Source: Gemmatimonadota bacterium
GTDB taxonomy: Bacteria; Gemmatimonadota; Gemmatimonadetes; Gemmatimonadales; GWC2-71-9
Length of the DNA stretch: 15,949 nt
Direction of reading: 5' to 3'
Assembly (NCBI GenBank): GCA_003221005.1
Contig: QHTZ01000055.1
Coordinates: forward strand, 33,896 to 49,844
The notes under the pieces are model-generated. The model was not told the DNA's origin. It did no database searches and saw nothing but the letters and a program-made list of their open reading frames with translations. Of this stretch, positions 1 through 9,169 are shown piece after piece. The position numbers and the translations under genes are program-made. How positions within the stretch are numbered: the stretch's first letter is position 1; each line of letters starts with the position of its first letter.

Positions 1-793
1 CGCGCCCGCGGGCGAGCCCGCCCTCGGGCCGGTGGCATTCATGCATCGCCCGTCGGCCGAGAACGATCCCTTCGCGCCGATTTCGCATCACTGGCAGGAC
101 GCCACCCACATAACGTTCGGCGTCGTGACCGCCGGACTATTCACCCGGTCGGTGAAGCTCGAGGGGTCCTGGTTCAACGGTCGTGAACCGGACCAAAATC
201 GCTCCAGGCTAGAATACCGTAACCCCGATTCTTATAGCGCGCGCGTCACCGTCAACCCGGGGTCGCGCTGGAGCGTGTCGGCATGGTACGCCCACATCAA
301 CCGGCCGGAGGGGGGATTCCTCCCCAACATCCGCAAGTATGGAGTGTCCGTACTCACCACGCAGTCGTGGCGCAAGAGCGGGCACTGGGCGAGCGCGCTG
401 ATTTGGGGCGCGAACGCCCCGATCATTTACGAGACGGGGTCGAGCAGTTTCTTGCTGGAATCCAACCTCGATCTTGACGGAGTGAACGCCATCTTCGCTC
501 GTGCCGAGTACGTCAAGAAGCAGGCCCACGATATCATCCCCTTGTTCCTCGGCGTGCCGCCTCGGACCCTGTACGCTCTCTCGGTACTGGCGGTCGGCTA
601 CCATCGGGTGATCCTGACCCCGGGCCGGTTGAACGTGGGCCTCGGCTTCCGCGGCGCTGTAAACTTCGTGCCGGCGAGCCTCGAGAGCTTCTACGATTCG
701 CAAACCCCGGTGGGGGGCGCAATCTACCTGACCCTGCGACCTGGCAGCGTACCTGCGGGGGGCATGATGGACATGCCGGGGATGTCGCATTAG
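1..793 (+). CDS. Conserved hypothetical protein, probable outer-membrane beta-barrel (5' partial), with Met/His-rich C-terminal tail
   Basis: The frame is open from the window edge (APAGEPALGPVAFMHRPSA...HHWQDATHITFGVVTAG), so the true start is upstream. Alternating amphipathic beta-strand pattern; ends GGMMDMPGMSH, TAG at 791-793. Confidence 0.7.
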   Translation, partial: APAGEPALGPVAFMHRPSAENDPFAPISHHWQDATHITFGVVTAGLFTRSVKLEGSWFNGREPDQNRSRLEYRNPDSYSARVTVNPGSRWSVSAWYAHINRPEGGFLPNIRKYGVSVLTTQSWRKSGHWASALIWGANAPIIYETGSSSFLLESNLDLDGVNAIFARAEYVKKQAHDIIPLFLGVPPRTLYALSVLAVGYHRVILTPGRLNVGLGFRGAVNFVPASLESFYDSQTPVGGAIYLTLRPGSVPAGGMMDMPGMSH

Positions 794-880
794 CGATACA
801 CAAGCATCGCGCGACCGGTGGTCGATGTTGCCGTGGCGGCTCGAACTGGTGGACTATTGGGACGTGAGCGGGGCGAGGTA

Positions 881-903
881 TCGCGACCCTATTCGCAACC
901 GTT
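881..903. repeat. Degenerate tandem arm-like repeat TCGCGACCCTATTCGCAACCGTT
   Basis: 17/23 match to TCGCAACTGAAATCGCAACTGTT (1042-1064 and 4871-4893), with the same 12-bp period; lies on the opposite side of the tRNA fragment at 913-958. Confidence 0.5.
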
Positions 904-912
904 TTTCTACGG

Positions 913-958
913 CGATGCGCCAGGCGGGATTCGAACCCACGACCTTCGGCTCCGGAGG
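913..958 (-). repeat. 3' half of tRNA-Arg(CCG), att-like direct repeat
   Basis: 44/46 identical to 8025-8070. Homology ends just past the anticodon loop (CTCCGGAGG). The two differences are a compensatory T-stem pair. Confidence 0.9.
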
Positions 959-1064
959 GCGAGTTGGTCGGCGGTACGCAACGCCAGCCAACGTCGTATC
1001 AGCAGGTTAGCGCCAGCCAGCGCCGGTGGGCAACGCCCCCGTCGCAACTGAAATCGCAACTGTT
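941..1064. mobile_element. att-like end module Y, copy 1: tRNA core, IHF-like site (997-1009), tandem TCGCAACTG repeats (1040-1064)
   Basis: Colinear with 4767-4893 (by hand: 29 mismatches over 124 bp plus one 3-bp indel). The terminal 25 bp CGTCGCAACTGAAATCGCAACTGTT are identical. TATCAGCAGGTTA fits the IHF consensus WATCARNNNNTTR. Confidence 0.75.
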
Positions 1065-1151
1065 CGCGGCGCCGCCGCGGGCGGCGACGTCGAGCGAAGA
1101 TTGCCAGCGGCGCGCGTGCATCGTCGCTACCATGAGTCACCGCATTGGTCG

Positions 1152-1179
1152 TCACGGACCGGCAAACAAGTGGCAAACA
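1152..1179. repeat. Module X, copy 1: TCACGGACCGGCAAAC followed by a second GGCAAAC
   Basis: 16 bp identical to 5641-5656. Both copies continue with a second TGGCAARCA. Confidence 0.7.
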
Positions 1180-1383
1180 TCTGGCCGCCGGTGTGGGTGC
1201 CCCTGAGGGCTAGGGCTTGACAGGGGGCAGGCGAAGCCGTGGATCGGGATCTGCCACGCGCGCCTCAATGGGCGGCAAGGGCCGCGCCCACGAAGGTGCT
1301 GTACGTGGAGCACTACACCCGCGGTCCACACGTCCCCATCTTGCAGCGATCCTTCACCAACTCAAGCGCTCAAAGGGCCCAGC

Positions 1384-3096
1384 GTGATAGATGTGGGACG
1401 TGGCATAGACATGGGCGATCCCGCCGTCTTCCGCTCGGTTGTCGAAAAGCTCATGAGGACGCTGGGTGAGAAGTGGATCAGGGATCGGTTGGCCAAACTA
1501 TTGCGTAGCTCGAAGGCACCGCTCCCCAGAGACGAGGGATCGCGGTTGCTGGGTGCGCTGGCAGAGTACCCCGACATGCTCCGCGCCCTTGAGGCGGGAC
1601 AGGCACCCCGAGATCCCCACCTGCAGCTGTCTCTCGGGACGGTCGCTCGGGTGGTCTCGGAGTGTTCAGCGGTGCCCGGGGGTAAACGCTTGAGAAGAAG
1701 GCTCCGCCGCCACGCCCAGGCCGACCGGTGGGCCGAGTTCTTTGACACGCTCTTCGAAGGTGAGGCGGCGCTCTACTGGCGCAACCAGATGCAGGCGCGC
1801 GTGGAGTTCCCCGCCAAGGATCATCCGGACTTTCTCGCCGCCGTGAGCCTCGTCGGACACGAATTCTTCATACCGAACGAGTGCAAGCGGATTGAACCGG
1901 TGGAGAAGCGCGAATCCGAACTCGAGCAATTCGCTGCTGCACTGGATCCGGACGTACACGCGTGGGTTGTGGGCCATGCCCCGGTCAAGGTCGTAGTCTG
2001 GCTTCATGAGGAGGCAGCACGGATCTCACGAGTGGAGGTTGTAGGGCTGATAACCGACTTGGCCGCAAAGGCGGTAGAGCCCTCTGTTGGTGTGCGCTGG
2101 CTCACGGCGTCACACCCGAAGGGACTGTTCCAGGTGAGTGTCGCGAGTGCCGGCAAGGATGGAGAGGTCAAGGAGCGGCCGATTAAGATCAACGACATTC
2201 CTGCGGTGGGACCCCTCTTGGTGCGCACGAAGAGCGTCTATCGCGGTCAGCCACAGGATCCGGTCAGCCTCGTATACGCCGTGAGCGTCCGATCAGACGC
2301 CTTGCCCAATCGGATCGGCGCCCTCGAACGCAACCTCAATGAGGCGGTTGCGCAGGTCGCCGTCTCGACCACAAAGGCGCCTGGCGTCGTGAACGTTAGA
2401 ATCCGCCCTCCCCGAGCGTTGGGTGATCTCTATGAGGCGGACGCCATCGTGCGCCGCGTCTTGCGATCACTAGATGCAGAGCACATCGCGCTGGCAGTGC
2501 TCTTTTGGAACGAGAGCGAGCGGGAGGAGGGGGATTGGCAACAAGTGGAAGGCCAATCCCAGCGAGTCGTAACGGTCGGCTACGGTCTCATCCCGTATTT
2601 CATCGCCCACGGGCGCGCTCCGATCGACTTTTCGCCCATCGACTCGAGGGCGAGTCGTTTTGGTTCGGCAGCGGCCATACGAGATCCCGAGACCGGGTCG
2701 ATGGTTCCGGTGGACAGTCAGTTCTTCGAACAGTTGGAGCGCACACCGATGGTCGCAGGAGACCCTACAAGAAAGGAACCGGGAGCATGGATGTACTTCG
2801 AACTGGAGCAGCCGTTTCCAGAAGGGATCACCCGCCAAGCCATTCAGCCCATAAAGGCCGAGGGCCGGATTTTCCTTCCTATCTTCGATGATCAACAACA
2901 CGTTCGATTTGTCGAGTTTGTGGGGCGTGAGCCGGTTTGCGTCGCGACACTAGATCTCCGGGCTTGGCAGGGGCAAAGGGAGTTCTTGTTCACCGTACGA
3001 TGGGACGACGACCGGTGGAGTGTGAGTTCCCCTACGCCGGACGAGACCGCGCAAATCGTGGCGTTGAGTAGCCCTCTTAGGCCGGTGTTCCCGTAG
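1384..3096 (+). CDS. Hypothetical protein with PD-(D/E)XK nuclease-like motif (possible defence protein)
   Basis: 570-aa ORF (start could be ATG 1411). It contains FE.E...HPDF...ECKR (nt ~1755-1890), a restriction-endonuclease-fold signature. No family recognised. Confidence 0.6.
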   Translation: MIDVGRGIDMGDPAVFRSVVEKLMRTLGEKWIRDRLAKLLRSSKAPLPRDEGSRLLGALAEYPDMLRALEAGQAPRDPHLQLSLGTVARVVSECSAVPGGKRLRRRLRRHAQADRWAEFFDTLFEGEAALYWRNQMQARVEFPAKDHPDFLAAVSLVGHEFFIPNECKRIEPVEKRESELEQFAAALDPDVHAWVVGHAPVKVVVWLHEEAARISRVEVVGLITDLAAKAVEPSVGVRWLTASHPKGLFQVSVASAGKDGEVKERPIKINDIPAVGPLLVRTKSVYRGQPQDPVSLVYAVSVRSDALPNRIGALERNLNEAVAQVAVSTTKAPGVVNVRIRPPRALGDLYEADAIVRRVLRSLDAEHIALAVLFWNESEREEGDWQQVEGQSQRVVTVGYGLIPYFIAHGRAPIDFSPIDSRASRFGSAAAIRDPETGSMVPVDSQFFEQLERTPMVAGDPTRKEPGAWMYFELEQPFPEGITRQAIQPIKAEGRIFLPIFDDQQHVRFVEFVGREPVCVATLDLRAWQGQREFLFTVRWDDDRWSVSSPTPDETAQIVALSSPLRPVFP

Positions 3097-3172
3097 CCTG
3101 TACCCTAATCGCGGCCGCGCTCTGAGGGTACGGAAAGGCGCATTATCGTAGTCATCTTCAGGGCCGGCTCAT

Positions 3173-3213
3173 GGACCAGAAGGTCCCGGGTTCAAATCCC
3201 GGCGCCCCGACTA
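3173..3213 (+). repeat. 3' half of a tRNA-Pro (att-like fragment)
   Basis: GGACCAGAAGGTCCCGGGTTCAAATCCCGGCGCCCCGACTA versus resident tRNA-Pro GGACCAGGAGGTCGGAGGTTCAAATCCTCTCGCCCCGACTA. The T-arm is intact (CCGGG/CCCGG). No 5' half or D-arm. Confidence 0.75.
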
Positions 3214-3382
3214 TGGAAGTCGTTGCAACTAGTCCCGAGCTGGACGAGCAACCCACGTGCTCCACCGCCCCGATCCGCGCGCCAATTCGAGCGCAACCCT
3301 GGGGCTCCCCGCGGCCCCTGCTTGATACCTACTTGACTGGCCCGGCCGATCTTGCAAGCATACGACCAGCCTCGGAGACACG

Positions 3383-4648
3383 ATGCGTCCTGCGATTCTG
3401 CTTCTTTTTTCCGCATGCATTGGATGCGATCTCAACGAGACTCCACACGAGCCGACGTTCTTCTTCAGCGCGTACCCACGCGGCACGACGGTGGGGGCTG
3501 TTCTCACCCCGACGCCTCAGGTCCGGATCCTGGATTGGACGGGCTACCTGGACTCCAACGCGACCGACCTCATCACCATCAGCCTCTCTGGGAACCCCGG
3601 GGGAGGAACGCTTTCCGGCGCTACGACCGTGGCTGCGGCGAACGGTGTCGCGACCTTTCCGAACCTGAGCATTGACAAGCAAGGGGAGGGGTACGTGCTG
3701 ACCGCGGCACCAAGAGTATTGCCTGCCTCCAGATTCCCTGCCTTGGGCGGCGCCTTCAATGTGGCATGCGCGTGCTGGAGCAGTAAGGCGCCGATGCCGA
3801 CTGGGCGCCCCAGTCTGGGCGTTGGCGTAGCGAACGGCGTCCTTTACGCCATCGGAGGATACAGCCAAACCTCCCTGGCGACCGTCGAGGCCTATGACCC
3901 GGTGGCCAATACCTGGACGACCAAGGCACCGATGCCTACCTCGCGTTTTGCTTTGGCCGTCGGCGTCGTGAACGGCGTCGTCTACGCCATCGGTGGATTC
4001 AACTACAGCAGCGGTCTGATCCTACCGAGCGTCGCCTACGATCCGGTGGCGAACAGCTGGACGACCAAGGCGCCGATGCCCACCCCGCGCTCGGGTTTAG
4101 CAGTGGGCGTCGTGAACGGCGTTCTGTACGCCGTGGGAGGCGATAGTGGTGCTGCCGAAATACCCGTCGGGACGACAGAGGCTTACGACCCGTCGACGAA
4201 CAGTTGGACGACCAAGCCGTCGATGCCCACCCCGCGTTCCGGTTTGGCTGTTGGCGTGGTGAGCGGCGTCCTCTACGCCGTCGGCGGAACCGATGGAAAC
4301 TACTACCCCTCTGTATACGGCCCCCCCCTGACGACCGTCGAAGCCTATGACCCGGTGACAAACAGCTGGACGACCAAGGCGCCGATGCCGACCCCGCGTT
4401 ACGGTTTGGCGGTTGGCGTGGTGAGCGGCTTCCTCTACGCCGTCGGAGGCAGCGGCCCGACGGGGACCGTCGCGGTCTACGATCCGGCGGCGAATAGCTG
4501 GACGAGCAGGGGACCGATGCTGACGTCGCGGACCTCCCTGGGTGCCGGCGTTGTGAACGGCGTCCTGTACGCCGTCGGCGGATTACCCCTTTACAACGGC
4601 GCTGCCCTCGCGACCCTTGAGGCCTACGACCCGGCTCAGGACCGTTGA
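3383..4648 (+). CDS. Secreted/lipoprotein Kelch-repeat (six-bladed beta-propeller) protein with N-terminal Ig-like segment
   Basis: Signal-like N-terminus with a possible lipobox (MRPAILLLFSACIGC). The NGVATFPNLSIDK..GYVLTA segment is Ig-like. Six repeats of W..KAPMPT.R.GLAVGVVNGVLYAVGG...EAYDP. Confidence 0.9.
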   Translation: MRPAILLLFSACIGCDLNETPHEPTFFFSAYPRGTTVGAVLTPTPQVRILDWTGYLDSNATDLITISLSGNPGGGTLSGATTVAAANGVATFPNLSIDKQGEGYVLTAAPRVLPASRFPALGGAFNVACACWSSKAPMPTGRPSLGVGVANGVLYAIGGYSQTSLATVEAYDPVANTWTTKAPMPTSRFALAVGVVNGVVYAIGGFNYSSGLILPSVAYDPVANSWTTKAPMPTPRSGLAVGVVNGVLYAVGGDSGAAEIPVGTTEAYDPSTNSWTTKPSMPTPRSGLAVGVVSGVLYAVGGTDGNYYPSVYGPPLTTVEAYDPVTNSWTTKAPMPTPRYGLAVGVVSGFLYAVGGSGPTGTVAVYDPAANSWTSRGPMLTSRTSLGAGVVNGVLYAVGGLPLYNGAALATLEAYDPAQDR

Positions 4649-4766
4649 GGTCTGGCGGCCGGGCTCAGAGCAGCGGCAACTCGAGGCCGTCCTTATGATG
4701 CCTGCCGGCTGGCCTCGATGATGGTTTCCGAGCAGCCGACCGTGCCCCAGCGCTCAAACTTACAGG

Positions 4767-4893
4767 GACCTTCGGCTTCTCCGGAGGGCGAGTGAACCGG
4801 CGTCGGGCAGCGCGCGCTAACGCCTTCTCAAGGACTTAGCGTCGGCCAGCGCCCGCAAGCAACGTCTGCGTCGCAACTGAAATCGCAACTGTT
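4767..4893. mobile_element. att-like end module Y, copy 2 (degenerate tRNA-Arg core, IHF-like site 4826-4838, tandem repeats 4869-4893)
   Basis: GACCTTCGGC(TTC)TCCGGAGGGCGAGT...TCTCAAGGACTTA...CGTCGCAACTGAAATCGCAACTGTT, homologous to 941-1064. Confidence 0.75.
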
Positions 4894-4914
4894 TTAACAG
4901 CGGCTGCCGGCTAA

Positions 4915-5490
4915 TCACCGCCAGACCGACGCCTTCTTGGCCCATGTGCTGTCCTGATACCGCTGGGTGAAGGCGCGCGCGGTGTCCTTCAGCGACGCCC
5001 CGTCACCCGTCGCTTTGTAGGGCGCGACCCCCGCCCAGTAGAGTGCCTCCGCTGCCGCATCGGTATGCGGTAGCCGCTCCACAATCTCTCGGAAGCGCCG
5101 CTCTGCGTCGGCCCACCGCTCCTGCTTGAAGGCCATGTGCGCCAGGCCGAGCATCAGTTGCGCGAGGAAGTCGTCCGCGGGAAGAAATCCCTCCACGCGG
5201 TGGCGCTCGACGCCGTCGGCATCCAGCTCGAGAATCGTCGGGGTCCATGGCGCGCTGTAGCGCTCGCCGTAGCGCTTGAAGTCCCCCGGGTTTTCTTTCA
5301 CGTGCACCCGGGCAGGCAGGAAATGCTGGTTCACGAAGCGCACCACGCGTTCATCCGGCCACACCTCGGCATCCAGCCGAGCACAGCCGCTTCACATCGG
5401 AGCGGCGCTGAAGTCGAGGAGTACTGGTTTCTGCTGGGCCTTCGCGTCATTCAGCACCTGGTCAACGTCACGGCGAAATTGGATTGGCAT
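4915..5490 (-). CDS. Thioredoxin-fold plus TPR-like protein, probable selenoprotein (U33-S-G-C), 191 aa
   Basis: Extending ORF 4915..5364 upstream in frame gives MPIQFRRDVDQVLNDAKAQQKPVLLDFSAAPM-TGA-SGCARLDAEVWPDERV...WTPTILELDADG. The TGA (5392-5394) sits at the first Cys position of the Trx CxxC, and the cis-Pro motif WTPT is present. The C-terminal half is TPR-like (AEALYWAG). Confidence 0.85.
5356..5389 (-). promoter_or_regulatory. Bacterial SECIS-like hairpin
   Basis: Directly 3' of the UGA: CGGCUGUG-CUCGGC-UGGAU-GCCGAG-GUGUGGCCG. Perfect 6-bp upper stem, G-containing 5-nt loop starting 16 nt after the UGA, and a GC/GU lower stem. Confidence 0.75.
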
Positions 5491-5640
5491 CGCATGCTCG
5501 CGGGCGGATGTGACTTCGCTCCAAGATAGCCAAGCTCACAGATCTCCGGCACCGGCCTCCAAAGACGGCGGGTCGATGCGGGCCCGCCGTTCTTGTGCTC
5601 ACGCAGGGCCGTTGGGGACCACCAAATACCTCCACGTCCA

Positions 5641-5669
5641 TCACGGACCGGCAAACGGTATGGCAAGCA
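5641..5669. repeat. Module X, copy 2
   Basis: TCACGGACCGGCAAACGGTATGGCAAGCA versus 1152-1179 TCACGGACCGGCAAACAAGTGGCAAACA. Confidence 0.7.
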
Positions 5670-5974
5670 GGTTCCGCATCCGTTGGTCAGCTTTCAGGTC
5701 TCGCCTCCGGAGCAGGGGGATGAACCCGATTCCGATTCCCTCGATCTGGTGCGACCCCGAAGGCTTCCCCGAGAGCACCGCGGATTCCGTCGGCCCCACT
5801 GCCGCAACGTATAGCTGAGGATTGGGCCTCGCAGCGCGTGCGCCGCGCTATGAATCCGCCGGTGCAATGGACACGTCGTGCGGGCCCGCGCCGATGTCGG
5901 GTAAGTCAGTCGGAGCTTGGTTTGGGACGGGTCTTGGTGGGGCGGGTGCGGACTGCGCCAGTGCAACCGCGATC

Positions 5975-7411
5975 CTAGGCATCGGGCGCAGTGGGCGGGA
6001 TGTTCTTGTTCATTCGGAACACGTTGTTCGAGTCCCACTTCGTCTTGATCTCGACGAGCCGATCGTAATTCTCCCCGTACGCGGCGTGGACACGGTCGCT
6101 TCCCTCCTCCTCGGTCAGAAAGTTGACGTACGTGCCCCCCGTCGAAAACGGGCGCAAGTCTTCCCAGGCCGCCCGCGCCCACCCGATGTTCGCCTTGTCG
6201 TCGTCGGCCCGTTCCCACGATGCCGTGATGTTGAGGACCGAGGCAGCGTCGCGGTTCCCCGCCGGGGAGTGCTCGGCCGACAGTCGGTTCAGCGCTCCGT
6301 CGATCGGGAAGACCAGGATTGCGGAGTGGGGCGACGGGATCCGCTTCGCGTGCTCGATGACCTTGGCAAGCATGTCGGGCTCATGCCGTGGCAGGTACTC
6401 TGACTTCCAATAGTACCGCCTGCCCTTCGGTTGAGTCGCGTCGAGCAGGCTCTGCTGCGACACATATGGTCGCCACTGAATGATGTCGCCCACCGGCGAA
6501 CCGAACCTTTTGATCGGGGCGACCTGCCGCTCGCCCTCCGCACGCGGGCCCGTCTGACAGACGAAGATCGCCACGATGGGCTTGCCGTGGATCTCCTTGG
6601 GCAACCATGGCGCTGGCGGGGCGTTGCGCAGGACGGCGACGCAAGTGAGTTCGGGCGGCGCCTGCGCGGTCACGGTGCGGTACATCTCGAGCACCTCGTG
6701 CGCGTCCTCCGCGCGCCACGCCATGGCCCCCGCCATTACCTCCGGTCCGACGGGGTGAAGCTTGTATTCGAAGCTCGTCACGACCCCGAAATTGCCGCCT
6801 CCACCCCGCAGGCCCCAGAAGAGGTCGTGGTTCTCCCGGGCGCTCGCCCGCACAAACCGCCCGTCTGCCGTGACGACGTCCATCGAGAGCACATTATCGC
6901 AACTCCAGCCGAACCGGCGCGTGAGGTAGCCAAAGCCCCCCCCGAGCGTGAGCCCGGCAATGCCCGTGGTCGAAAGGAAGCCGAGGACTGCGGCCAGGCC
7001 GTGGAGCTGGGTCTCGCGGTCCAGGTCACCTAAGAGACAGCCAGCCTGGGCACGCGCCGTGCGCGCCGTCGAATCCACCCATACGCCACGCATGAGCGAC
7101 AGGTCGACCATCAGTCCGCCGTCGCAGACCGCGAGACCGGAGATGTTGTGCCCACCACCCTTGATCGAAACGGTGACGCCGTGCTCGCGAGCGAAGTTCA
7201 CGCACGTCACGACGTCGGCGACGCCGAGGCAGCGCGCGATGAGTGCAGGCCGACGGTCGATCATGGCATTCCAGATGGCCCGCCCGTCGTCGTAGCCAGG
7301 GTCGCCGGGGAGCAAGAGCGCTCCCCGCAGGTGGCCCCTGAGGTCCTCGACGGTGTTTCGCTCGAGCGTGACGACGGTGCCTTCGCTCGTCCTCACTGCC
7401 ACGCTTGTCAC
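5975..7411 (-). CDS. FAD-binding oxidoreductase, BBE/VAO-PCMH family (6-hydroxy-D-nicotine oxidase-like)
   Basis: WNAMIDRRPALIARC, KGGGHN (FAD-linking His), GIAGLTLGGGFG, DLFWGLRGGGGNFGVVT, and the C-terminal BBE motif YVNF...YGENYDRLVEIKTKWD.NNVFR. The start is uncertain; GTG 7411 preferred over 7507. Confidence 0.92.
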   Translation of the reverse strand: MTSVAVRTSEGTVVTLERNTVEDLRGHLRGALLLPGDPGYDDGRAIWNAMIDRRPALIARCLGVADVVTCVNFAREHGVTVSIKGGGHNISGLAVCDGGLMVDLSLMRGVWVDSTARTARAQAGCLLGDLDRETQLHGLAAVLGFLSTTGIAGLTLGGGFGYLTRRFGWSCDNVLSMDVVTADGRFVRASARENHDLFWGLRGGGGNFGVVTSFEYKLHPVGPEVMAGAMAWRAEDAHEVLEMYRTVTAQAPPELTCVAVLRNAPPAPWLPKEIHGKPIVAIFVCQTGPRAEGERQVAPIKRFGSPVGDIIQWRPYVSQQSLLDATQPKGRRYYWKSEYLPRHEPDMLAKVIEHAKRIPSPHSAILVFPIDGALNRLSAEHSPAGNRDAASVLNITASWERADDDKANIGWARAAWEDLRPFSTGGTYVNFLTEEEGSDRVHAAYGENYDRLVEIKTKWDSNNVFRMNKNIPPTAPDA

Positions 7412-7649
7412 ACGCACTTGATTATAGGAACAGGCACAAGGACTCGCCGCGGCGATGGGCCGGGCAATGTCAAAGGTCGCCCGGTACGCGGCGGCCGTCC
7501 AGAGCATGGCCCGAGCGACTGCGTGAATCCAGCGGCCCCCGCCGACGCGTCCCGGGAGGAACTGCGGCGAGCGTTACGGAACGCTCGCCGCTTGTCGTTT
7601 CATGCTGTTATCCGATTTAACCCCCGCCGCCTCATCGCTCAAACCGATA

Positions 7650-7788
7650 GTGGAACAACGCCGAGACAAGTTCGGAGACGGCGGGTCGCACGCTCCGGAG
7701 CGGCCAGGCGTTCGGTCGCGTGGCGACTGATGATCGCCAGGGTGCTCGTATCGGAGAACGGTGGCTCCCCTGCGAGCATTTCGTAGAT
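7650..7788 (-). pseudogene. Fragment of a Hanks-type Ser/Thr protein kinase gene
   Basis: The minus strand reads IYEMLAGEPPFSDTSTLAIISRHATER, then after a frameshift PLRSVRPAVSELVSALF, matching kinase subdomains IX-X. No N-terminal kinase lobe. Confidence 0.75.
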
Positions 7789-8027
7789 CCGCCGACACAC
7801 CCGCTCGCAGCGCGATCATGGCGAGGTGCCGATTGCTGCACAGTTGTCAGCGCCAGCTCGATAACTTGCGGAGTCATCGGCCTTGGTTGCCGGGTGGGCT
7901 TGCTGAGGAAGAGCGAGGAACTCGATACATCGCTGCACCCGCGGGGATTCGACCGCTGGGAGAGTCAAGGTCCCGCCGGGACCTTCGGCCTCGTTGGCCG
8001 AAACGTGAAACCGCGTCTGTAAGTCGA

Positions 8028-8101
8028 TGCGCCAGACGGGATTCGAACCCATGACCTTCGGCTCCGGAGGCCGACGCTCTATCCAGCTGAGCTACTGGCG
8101 C
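8028..8101 (-). tRNA. tRNA-Arg(CCG)
   Basis: GCGCCAGTAGCTCAGCTGGATAGAGCG-TCGGC-CTCCGGA-GCCGA-AGGTCATGGGTTCGAATCCCGTCTGGCGCA; full cloverleaf, CCA not encoded. Confidence 0.97.
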
Positions 8102-8197
8102 GTGTTGTGCCGCAACACCTAAGCCGACTGCGGGCGGCGGCGGGCCAGACCGATGGTTGCCGTAACGGCCTCATTGATGCTCCCGCACCGTGAGCTT

Positions 8198-8239
8198 GGC
8201 TCCGGAGGCCGACGCTCCATCCAGCTGAGCCACTGACGC
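8198..8239 (-). repeat. 5' half of tRNA-Arg(CCG), degenerate duplicate
   Basis: 39/42 identical to 8060-8101; ends just past the anticodon loop. Confidence 0.88.
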
Positions 8240-8317
8240 CCACTCGGTCGGACGTCGGAAGGAAAAGCACGGACGGTGTTGGCGTCCGGCAATCCGACCG
8301 TCCGACAGCAGGACTGT

Positions 8318-8394
<77 letters not shown>

Positions 8395-8426
8395 AAATGG
8401 TCCGACCGTCCGACAGTCCGACCGAG

Positions 8427-8500
8427 TGCGCCCAGAGGGAGTCGAACCCCCAGCCTTTTGGTCCGTAGCCAAACGCTCTATCCAGTTGAGCTATGGGCGC
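8427..8500 (-). tRNA. tRNA-Arg(ACG)
   Basis: GCGCCCATAGCTCAACTGGATAGAGCG-TTTGG-CTACGGA-CCAAA-AGGCTGGGGGTTCGACTCCCTCTGGGCGCA. Confidence 0.97.
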
Positions 8501-8508
8501 GCGCGGAG

Positions 8509-8582
<74 letters not shown>

Positions 8583-8588
8583 AAAAGA

Positions 8589-8717
8589 CTAGACGGGTAG
8601 ACGGCGAGACGGGTAGACGGGTAGCGGTTCGTAGTGATCAAAGGGGAGAGAACCACTCTCGCTTCTCCGCCCCACTCGCCGCTGTCCGTCTACCCGTCTG
8701 TCCGTCTACCCGTCTAG
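8589..8717. repeat. Inverted repeat built from 8-mer tandem units (AGACGGGT), CTAG at both ends
   Basis: 8589-8627 and 8679-8717 form a 39-bp inverted repeat with 4 mismatches. Confidence 0.85.
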
Positions 8718-8720
8718 CAG

Positions 8721-8794
8721 TAGCGGGGGTGGGATTTGAACCCACGACCTCCGGGTTATGAGCCCGGCGAGCTACCAGACTGCTCCACCCCGCG
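8721..8794 (-). tRNA. tRNA-fMet(CAT), initiator
   Basis: CGCGGGGTGGAGCAGTCTGGTAGCTCG-CCGGG-CTCATAA-CCCGG...CCCCCGCTA; unpaired C1 and three G-C pairs closing the anticodon stem. Confidence 0.96.
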
Positions 8795-8801
8795 TCGCCA
8801 T

Positions 8802-8890
8802 GGTCGGACCGTCGGACTGCTGGACGGTCGGACCGTACTTGGTGCTGCTCACCTCACTGTCTGACGGTCCGACTGTCCGACCGTCCGACG
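8802..8890. repeat. Inverted repeat of 8-mer tandem units (GTCGGACN / GTCCGACN)
   Basis: GGTCGGACCGTCGGACTGCTGGACGGTCGGACC ... GTCTGACGGTCCGACTGTCCGACCGTCCGAC. The same unit occurs at 8245-8306 and 8400-8424. Confidence 0.8.
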
Positions 8891-8895
8891 GGCAG

Positions 8896-8968
8896 AGCGG
8901 GAAACGGGACTCGAACCCGCGACCCCAACCTTGGCAAGGTTGTGCTCTACCAACTGAGCTATTCCCGC
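8896..8968 (-). tRNA. tRNA-Gly(GCC)
   Basis: GCGGGAATAGCTCAGTTGGTAGAGCA-CAACC-TTGCCAA-GGTTG-GGGTCGCGGGTTCGAGTCCCGTTTCCCGCT. Confidence 0.97.
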
Positions 8969-8973
8969 AAAGA

Positions 8974-9092
8974 CTAGACGTCGAGACGGGTAGACGGGTA
9001 GGAGGTATCCGCGTCCGTCAGGCTCGCCAGTCTTGCACCCCTGCCAACTGTAGCCAAACAACTCCTCGCCGTCTACCCGTCTACCCGCCTAG
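8974..9092. repeat. Second CTAG-bounded AGACGGGT tandem inverted repeat
   Basis: CTAGACGTCGAGACGGGTAGACGGGTAG ... CCGTCTACCCGTCTACCCGCCTAG. Confidence 0.8.
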
Positions 9093-9093
9093 C

Positions 9094-9169
9094 TGGTGGA
9101 GGCGAGGGGGATCGAACCCCTGACCTCGTGAATGCCATTCACGCGCTCTCCCAACTGAGCTACGCCCCC
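9094..9169 (-). tRNA. tRNA-Ala(GGC)
   Basis: GGGGGCGTAGCTCAGTTGGGAGAGCG-CGTGA-ATGGCAT-TCACG...CGCCTCCACCA; G3.U70 pair, CCA encoded. Confidence 0.97.

Follow-up and report, generated by a model that had tools for sequence, protein, structure and literature searches.

The window analysed here is the last 15.9 kb (15,949 nucleotides) of contig QHTZ01000055.1, positions 33,896 to 49,844 (contig C38 below), which belongs to a soil Gemmatimonadota metagenome-assembled genome (MAG; GCA_003221005.1) of 2.79 Mb in 141 contigs with a completeness of 93.9% and a contamination of 0.35%. Our subject is the stretch at 915–8101, where cargo genes lie among displaced pieces of tRNA genes and recurring non-coding modules. 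It is anchored on an intact tRNA-Arg(CCG) gene (8028–8101, minus strand; Rfam 70.9 bits, with allele comparison), the last of seven minus-strand tRNA genes at 8028–9169 recognised by ARAGORN and Rfam. The DNA of interest is downstream of this gene, that is, at lower coordinates; to the right of the tRNA cluster are core genes for a sigma-70 factor, an ABC/MlaD pair, a NUDIX protein, an AraC-type regulator and ATP synthase alpha. An Rfam scan of the window returned nothing beyond the seven tRNAs, and no family for either of the two non-coding modules, Y and X, described below.

The far end of the stretch is marked by a displaced 3′ part of tRNA-Arg(CCG) at 915–958 (minus strand), an attR-like distal boundary (att, attachment site) recognised by repeat and tRNA comparisons. 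This copy of 44–46 nucleotides starts in the anticodon arm and takes in the rest of the tRNA up to its 3′ end (positions ~31–74). An earlier reading of the DNA from its letters alone (the sequence-only reading) had called it near-perfect, and so it is: it matches the window's own tRNA (8028–8073) at 44 of 46 positions (95.7%) and the second tRNA-Arg(CCG) of the MAG, on contig C68, at 44 of 44. A compensatory T-stem pair separates the intact gene (GACGGG...CCCAT) from the fragment (GGCGGG...CCCAC), which argues that two functional alleles have been joined here, not that one copy is decaying. The 19 nucleotides just outside the fragment (897–915) also resemble 8009–8027, at about 13 of 19 positions counted by hand. 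A second, degenerate Arg fragment, likewise anticipated, lies at 4765–4790 (minus strand) directly before the second copy of Y; it comprises the anticodon-arm part only, with a 3-nucleotide insertion, and is full-length in metagenome contigs L049 and L051. Finally, a dead tRNA-Arg 5′ half (8198–8240, minus strand; tRNA positions 5–42, 38 nucleotides, 94.7% identity) lies 96 nucleotides upstream of the intact gene. This half and the displaced 3′ fragment overlap at the anticodon arm, and both may stem from one old tRNA gene that was split by a 7.2-kb insertion carrying its own tRNA-Arg allele.

Between the Arg fragments is a piece of a different tRNA. The att-like 3′ part of tRNA-Pro at 3173–3212 (plus strand), which the sequence-only reading had also recognised, is identical at 40 of 40 positions to tRNA-Pro(TGG), whose intact gene is on contig C17, and its origin is therefore not the tRNA-Pro(CGG) of the neighbouring cluster. 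The identity ends 2 nucleotides beyond the tRNA 3′ end. The piece is inverted relative to the Arg copies and faces outward opposite the Arg fragment, with the gene for a 570-amino-acid protein between them; the same Arg/Pro pairing surrounds a response regulator gene in metagenome contig L056.

The two modules recur, although to different extents. Y had been described as a recurring module, and this is borne out by two copies, each following an Arg fragment, at a spacing of 3829 nucleotides. Y1 (959–1064), the non-coding arm beside the Arg core, consists of an imperfect hairpin, a GCCAGC box and two TCGCAACTG repeats 12 nucleotides apart; Y2 (4791–4893) is 75% identical to it and 95.7–96.4% identical to the copies in L049 and L051. 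Aligned over 950–1064 and 4779–4893, the copies keep the same 75% identity, and their last 25 bases are identical. An alignment of nine copies shows a mosaic of a hairpin-prone stretch by the core, a GCCAGCG box and two direct repeats 12 nucleotides apart, the sequence of the end repeats (TCGCAACTG or GTTGTTACC) being set by subfamily. We considered and rejected the idea that Y is a structured RNA: the RNAalifold consensus of the nine copies has a covariation term of −0.42, with supported pairs confined to the tRNA part. Because the consensus fold is without covariation support, Y is more likely a protein-binding DNA arm than an RNA structure.

Module X stood up as a repeat, but one no longer than 16 nucleotides (1152–1167 and 5641–5656, an exact match). 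None of 200 shuffles gave two matches, and we estimate the chance of any repeat this long in the window at ~0.05. In both copies a second GGCAA(A/G)C follows 12 nucleotides downstream, so that X1 (1152–1183) comprises TCACGGACCGGCAAAC plus a second GGCAAAC 12 nucleotides on; X2 occupies 5641–5672, and the homology between the window and L049 stops exactly here. The layout, a pseudo-core-like ACGGACCGGC followed by two repeats 12 nucleotides apart, is like that of the tRNA-proximal arm, which tentatively suggests that X may mark the inner end of a unit.

The tRNA-proximal arm itself (7978–8027) contains a pseudo-core (GGGACCTTCGGCC), a hairpin, short GAAAC repeats and GTAAGTCGA, which abuts the tRNA 3′ end. 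A third tRNA-Arg fragment had been suspected at 7941–7989; its likeness to the core is confined to 7978–7997 (14 of 20 positions, by eye), and the remainder shows none. This pseudo-core is nonetheless kept beside the tRNA in C68, L056 and genome G215, where the arm as a whole is homologous (85.6% to C68 over 125 nucleotides including the tRNA). More generally, units of this family have GTAACTCCA, or a sequence close to it, directly against the tRNA 3′ end, followed by two short direct repeats. This layout is found in C38, C68, G009, G015, L056 and G215, several of which have the pseudo-core too, and the empty sites of genomes G001, G003 and G005 are without a GTAACTCCA-type proximal arm. The paired repeats of both arms are putative arm-type or accessory-protein binding sites for an integrase.

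The cargo between these elements is varied. The first gene (1384–3096, plus strand) encodes the 570-amino-acid protein, a member of an orphan family with a predicted PD-(D/E)xK core of the restriction-endonuclease type and no match in Pfam, PHROGs or NCBIfam. Sixteen proteins among 5.8 billion matched the family, which has an invariant HPD149...E166-C-K168 motif. The structural model (predicted local distance difference test score 84.9) places a nuclease-like core before beta-rich domains; a VIA structure search with it gave Z scores of 10.3 for a CdiA-CT nuclease, 9.9 for PaqCI and 7–10 for PD-(D/E)xK nucleases, and a Foldseek comparison with the PDB gave nothing at E ≤ 0.001. The structural matches include the fold of an excision-controlling factor (2okf, Z 7.5). 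We tried this protein as a candidate recombinase for the surrounding elements and rejected it, given its matches to PD-(D/E)xK nucleases and the lack of any homolog in the other Y loci. It is a candidate new nuclease carried as cargo, perhaps for defence.

Next come a six-blade Kelch-repeat protein (3383–4648, plus strand; Kelch_1 E 1.8e-59, with repeats of ~140 nucleotides) and a 97-nucleotide fragment of a cimA/leuA-like gene (4659–4755, minus strand), identified by alignment and reading frame as the last ~30 codons and the stop. The fragment is 84% identical to positions 17172–17267 of contig C61, which holds the full gene, and 76–80% identical to five relatives; its neighbours are the Kelch gene on one side and the truncated Arg core on the other. 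That the Kelch gene might be a native neighbour of tRNA-Pro(TGG) was considered and dropped, as no relative has a Kelch gene there and only the tRNA and cimA pieces match. The following gene, on the minus strand at 4915–5490, encodes a thioredoxin-like protein and has an in-frame TGA (5392–5394) as the opening codon of a U-S-G-C redox motif. Reading this TGA as selenocysteine (U) raises the Thioredoxin_2 score from 23.9 bits (partial) to 53.6 bits (full profile), and a 6-bp hairpin (CTCGGC TGGAT GCCGAG) lies ~13 nucleotides downstream of it. The MAG encodes a selenocysteine tRNA (tRNA-SeC) on contig C36, and L049 has the same TGA. The gene is thus probably a selenoprotein gene, which gene callers would shorten. 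The last cargo gene (5975–7507, minus strand) encodes a flavin adenine dinucleotide (FAD)-linked oxidase of the berberine-bridge-enzyme type, with FAD_binding_4 and BBE matches and a BagK/FevA1-like match below the cut-off. The remaining stretch, 7508–7977, has no recognisable gene; its small open reading frames (ORFs) lack coding-type GC content at third codon positions and match no family.

Comparison with related genomes shows that all of this is inserted DNA. In G001 and G003, of the same genus, a MASE1-GGDEF gene ends 30–35 nucleotides from tRNA-Arg(CCG), so the 14.8 kb that separate the two in this MAG contain an insertion. G005 and G006 have yet other content downstream of the tRNA. The sequence-only reading had proposed comparing cargo downstream of the tRNA between close relatives, and it proves to be completely different. 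The reading's more basic proposal, foreign DNA at tRNA-Arg(CCG) bounded and subdivided by tRNA 3′ copies, is upheld. Sixteen loci from relatives were compared and 15 contain the tRNA, only one of them (G015) with an Arg fragment downstream. The GC content is 58–66% across 1800–6000, against 68–70% for most contigs of the MAG. The tRNA cluster is present a second time, in diverged form, on contig C68. The left flank there is homologous (70–77% nucleotide identity), and the insert is unlike the window's: 8.4 kb between C68's own 44-nucleotide Arg fragment and the tRNA, encoding a BTAD-TPR regulator, an S8 peptidase, an RCC1-repeat protein and an outer-membrane barrel, and no recombinase. C68 is either a paralogous locus or part of a second related population in the bin.

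The sequence-only reading had also asked whether Y exists beyond this locus, and it does, as the arm of a family with unrelated cargo in other genomes and metagenomes. When metagenome contigs were scanned with the 22-nucleotide end of Y, 19 loci emerged, examined for 2 kb on each side. Three are unrelated and AT-rich. In thirteen a complete Arg 3′ fragment adjoins Y on its left, two (the window's own strain) have the truncated fragment, and L041 has none and the right half of Y only. The Arg core fragment therefore lies immediately beside Y in 15 of 16 family contigs. The junction of fragment and Y also occurs in another Gemmatimonadales MAG (L038) and in G015, and a diverged Y with GTTGTTACC repeats stands behind an Arg fragment in C68, L056 and G215. 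What lies to the right of Y varies: the 570-amino-acid protein in this strain; the thioredoxin-like gene, a probable selenoprotein gene, in L049 and L051 (95.7–96.4% identical to window positions 4765–5657); a response regulator of 163 amino acids in L047, L050, L056, L058 and L038; and a 437-amino-acid transporter of the major facilitator superfamily (MFS) in L046/L053 and L048. The MFS unit measures 1.5 kb from fragment to tRNA, and in L046 and L048 an intact tRNA-Arg follows ~40–65 nucleotides behind the transporter gene. The unit in G015 is smaller still, 0.65 kb with one DUF4440 gene. In L056 the response-regulator unit is succeeded by a tRNA-Pro-like 3′ piece and then a second Arg fragment flanked by GTTGTTACC repeats, a tandem junction that is also present in G215.

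The same design is repeated at other tRNAs of the MAG. A survey of all its tRNAs found 3′ fragments of 39–42 nucleotides of tRNA-Lys(CTT), -Trp, -Ile, -Ala(TGC) (twice) and -Pro(TGG), each beginning at tRNA position 32–37. The tRNA-Lys(CTT) unit on contig C42 is 0.71 kb long, with GTAACTCCA at the tRNA and paired direct repeats ~11–12 nucleotides apart in both arms; the tRNA-Trp unit on C129 is 2.4 kb long. Neither contains a recombinase.

The lack of a detectable recombinase is common to these units. In the window, as the sequence-only reading had stated, no intact integrase, transposase, replication or phage gene could be found when 18 ORFs were compared with Pfam and 16 with PHROGs and NCBIfam; beyond Pfam, the scans gave only generic Kelch matches. 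A six-frame search of the whole MAG with PF00589 gave five matches, none on contig C38, and PF00239 and PF07508 (serine recombinases) gave none anywhere in the MAG. No recombinase was detected in any of the eight units with both ends on one contig (0.65–8.4 kb); these are the units of the window, C68, G015, L046/L053, L048, C42 at tRNA-Lys(CTT) and C129 at tRNA-Trp, together with the first unit of L056, for which this rests on the size of the unit and its near-identity to L047 in place of its own ORF scan. Another 22 ORFs flanking Y-bearing loci include no recombinase, and PF00589 has no match on G215 C11 and C3, G181 C77, G015 C30 and G009 C3, contigs with Arg fragments or arms. Among the PF00589 matches listed for 40 relatives, none of 150 places is at the tRNA-Arg(CCG) locus; 83 more matches exist.

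The recombinases that the MAG does encode are two Xer-like genes (C125 and C10), one frameshifted xis-int pair and two weak remnants. The xis-int pair, at 1492–2915 of contig C42 (L087), consists of an HTH_17 excisionase-like ORF and a tyrosine integrase split by frameshift into ORFs of 146 and 194 amino acids; it is directly upstream of tRNA-Lys(CTT) and points at it, and the 0.71-kb unit is downstream of the same tRNA. The weak integrase remnants lie before tRNA-Ser on C34, in the same position as on C42, and by tRNA-Phe on C104. In viral contigs, the Arg core pattern matched once, in L060, where a D5-type primase gene stands beside the Arg core copy; L060 has no Y and no integrase within the 3.8 kb examined. 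The GTTGTTACC paired-repeat motif matched 21 times in viral contigs, with no Arg core in any case and no link to an integrase.

These observations fit best, with a probability of roughly 0.6 in our judgement, with the stretch at 915–8101 being a tandem array of att-bounded, integrase-less cassettes, comparable to cis-mobilizable elements (CIMEs), that would have arisen through site-specific recombination in the anticodon arm, with deletions scarring them afterwards. The layout of each unit is that of an element integrated in this way: it begins on its far side with the displaced tRNA copy, from anticodon arm to 3′ end, followed by Y (~105–125 nucleotides, ending in paired repeats 12 nucleotides apart), the cargo, often a single gene, and a second short arm with similar paired repeats that abuts the tRNA 3′ end. 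As no recombinase was detected in any unit, integration and any excision would have to rely on an integrase of the tyrosine type that is either encoded elsewhere or has meanwhile been lost. Each new unit would insert at the tRNA, so that older ones come to lie further out, and deletions and illegitimate joins would then erode the array, leaving the truncated core at 4765, the cimA piece, the tRNA-Pro(TGG) piece that stands astray at 3173 and, at 8198, the dead 5′ half.

The behaviour of the tRNA alleles is consistent with arrival from outside. L046 and L048 are 96% identical over 1596 nucleotides, from the right part of Y through the MFS gene to the tRNA, whereas no alignment is possible for the flanks outside. 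The two also differ in the T-arm allele of the displaced fragment (GCCGCG...CGCGG and GGCGGG...CCCAC); either allele looks functional, and each occurs as a resident tRNA among relatives. Such allele patterns, like the compensatory pair in the window itself, fit an incoming element that brings a new 3′ half and do not fit a local duplication. Movement as a unit is suggested, too, by Y2 and the thioredoxin gene, which are found, 95.7–96.4% identical, in three different left contexts.

Whether these cassettes still move is a separate matter. Present-day mobilisation in trans is plausible yet unproven, and we would not count on it. It is similarly a tentative idea that recombinase-free one-gene cassettes with two-armed sites built around a tRNA anticodon arm form a family in soil Gemmatimonadota that is moved by the integrases of passing elements or by an unrecognised host recombinase, with tRNA genes serving as sites of gene capture. 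Such capture, if it occurs, would be integron-like in function, but through lambda-type two-armed sites and with no resident integrase. The stronger form of the comparison, the integron-like locus proposed by the sequence-only reading, does not hold: there is no resident integrase by the tRNA, the orientation of the cargo is mixed, and Y is without a conserved attC-type hairpin.

Several observations weigh against an array of site-specific cassettes. An integrase that recognises these sites was found nowhere in the MAG, the relatives or the contigs searched, and the Y-end motif has no match in the IMG/VR viral contigs; at the same time, an integrase could lie beyond the 2 kb examined where the end of the unit was not reached (L047, L049 and L051). 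Junction-type fragments are rare in the order, with 3 of 401 genomes matching the pattern, a lower bound, since junctions followed by a C, such as that of C68, fall outside the pattern. At the contig level this strain showed neither an excised circle nor an empty site, nor any other order of its cargo; the same cargo order in independent contigs of the strain suggests that the array may be fixed. The tRNA-Pro(TGG) site within an Arg array has no clean explanation, and scars of illegitimate recombination are present (the cimA piece at 4659–4755). Finally, Y is a mosaic, and the block that L046 and L048 share has its start within Y instead of at the core, so that some of the shuffling may be due to homologous recombination between Y copies, with no site-specific step.

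The alternative that survives best, and that we regard as a serious minority possibility, is that these are ordinary decayed islands, each a former prophage, integrative and conjugative element (ICE) or integrative mobilizable element (IME) with its own integrase, whose recombination and transfer genes were deleted independently to leave immobile remnants. The sequence-only reading had named decayed islands that lost their integrases as its own alternative, and the signs of decay it implies are real: a truncated Y2 core at 4765 that abuts the cimA piece (4659–4755), and the dead 5′ half at 8198–8240. The unchanged cargo order in this strain's independent contigs is what immobile remnants would give, integrase remnants do lie by other tRNAs of the MAG (frameshifted at tRNA-Lys on C42, weak at tRNA-Ser on C34 and tRNA-Phe on C104), and the primase gene by the Arg core in L060 indicates that elements with replication genes target this tRNA. 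Yet no remnant of a recombinase was detected in any of the eight complete units, and several, at 0.65–1.5 kb with one gene, seem too small for random deletion to have spared both arms. It is also difficult for independent decay to place one integrase-less MFS cassette behind two displaced tRNA alleles in two genomes, or to keep the paired repeats of Y and the proximal arm across unrelated cargo.

Homologous recombination between Y arms or tRNA copies after natural transformation or transduction of chromosomal DNA, with the tRNA fragments as old relics on which no site-specific system now acts, is improbable as the main account. It would explain why a 33-nucleotide block in the middle of Y is identical in L046 and G215 though their end repeats differ, why shared blocks start inside Y (in L041 as well as in L046/L048) and why the homology between the window and L049 stops at X, not at a core copy. 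It leaves unexplained the origin of the fragments and the two arms, the fact that fragments at six tRNAs start at positions 31–37, near the anticodon loop, and a displaced allele that differs from the resident one.

That the contig is a chimera joined at tRNA-like repeats, or a product of binning, is very improbable: although the second diverged tRNA cluster on C68 and the duplicated tRNAs mean that more than one population may be binned, the repeats are merely 40–125 nucleotides long, the same joins and the Y1–Y2 spacing of 3829 nucleotides recur in independent metagenome assemblies (L042, L043/L044, L052 and L054/L055, which are 98.5–100% identical over the 570-amino-acid gene, the spacing being seen in L043/L044 and L054/L055), and 20 soil runs from 15 studies each contain 57% or more of the words sampled from window positions 700–8300.

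It is informative to set an array of integrase-less cassettes beside the known systems it resembles. As in elements that target tRNA genes with a tyrosine integrase, a direct repeat of the tRNA 3′ part lies at the far end, here and in C68, G015, L046, L048 and L056, and the insertion is missing from close relatives (G001 and G003); unlike in those elements, no element-encoded integrase lies next to an att site here. The likeness to CIMEs, such as the islands related to ICESt1 and ICESt3 of Streptococcus thermophilus, is closer. These retain attL and attR without genes for integration or transfer and are found in tandem at the 3′ end of the target gene, and in the window the outer pair of sites is intact (8028–8101 and 915–958) and the inner one (4765–4790) truncated. 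However, the units described here are far smaller (0.65–8.4 kb), often hold one gene, and are in Gemmatimonadota; arm Y is conserved across unrelated cargo, and no parent ICE or IME or matching integrase was found. Integron arrays share with them small, mostly single-gene units that lack their own recombinase and are collected at one chromosomal site, and differ in having a resident integrase and attC hairpins, where here we find long two-armed direct-repeat sites and cargo in both orientations.

Islands of Prochlorococcus flanked by tRNA genes are hypervariable, contain several partial tRNA repeats and often have no intact integrase, much like the array in the window. We know of no conserved arm module or single-gene unit structure described for them. 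In Dehalococcoides, multiple strain-specific islands lie in tandem downstream of ssrA, the gene for transfer-messenger RNA (tmRNA), each bounded by the gene or its 3′ repeat (PMC3146451). Most of these islands have a serine-recombinase module; in 16 of them integration genes form a six-gene set that includes a CcrB-like serine recombinase, the repeat is 20 bp long, and the authors suggest that some units without the module may be CIMEs (PMC3146451). The two systems have in common tandem islands by one small-RNA gene and a conserved motif next to the repeat; the locus in this MAG differs in that the MAG has no serine recombinase, the repeat is 40–46 nucleotides long and extends from the anticodon arm onward, and no unit has a detectable integration module. 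What is unusual in the present case is the small size of the units, the two-armed site common to unrelated cargo, the use of several tRNAs in one genome, and the phylum. The literature searched showed nothing on Gemmatimonadota or on such single-gene units, in searches made without those two terms, so that this is not proof of their being undescribed.

If cassettes of this kind do move without a recombinase of their own, they would offer a poorly studied soil phylum a simple route by which to gain single genes at its tRNAs, with transporters, regulators, a probable selenoprotein and a candidate nuclease among the accessory genes so gained here. In the arms and their paired 12-nucleotide repeats, candidate integrases have concrete sequences on which they can be tested. 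If, on the other hand, the units are relics that no longer move, the locus still illustrates clearly how a tRNA hotspot accretes and erodes, and it cautions that island finders that depend on an integrase miss such units.

Two further sets of short repeats are worth recording. Arrays of the TTGTTACC type with a 12-nucleotide period, whose unit equals the paired repeats of one arm subfamily, occur in viral contigs L063, L065, L073 and L075. All four arrays look non-coding; those of L063 and L065 are in or beside replication-type genes (DUF1376 and DUF927) and are iteron-like; the ORFs next to the arrays of L073 and L075 have no Pfam match. The MAG, despite its estimated contamination of 0.35%, has two diverged Arg-Pro-Arg-Val-Met tRNA clusters and several other duplicated tRNAs. 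In the window, the spacers among the clustered tRNA genes (8284–8316, 8400–8424, 8584–8725, 8804–8899 and 8961–9108) are made up of tandem 8-nucleotide units of the GTCCGACC and GACGGGTA types, which reappear inverted from spacer to spacer, and octamer runs that resemble them stand behind other tRNAs of the MAG, on contigs C68, C80, C81, C88 and C118.

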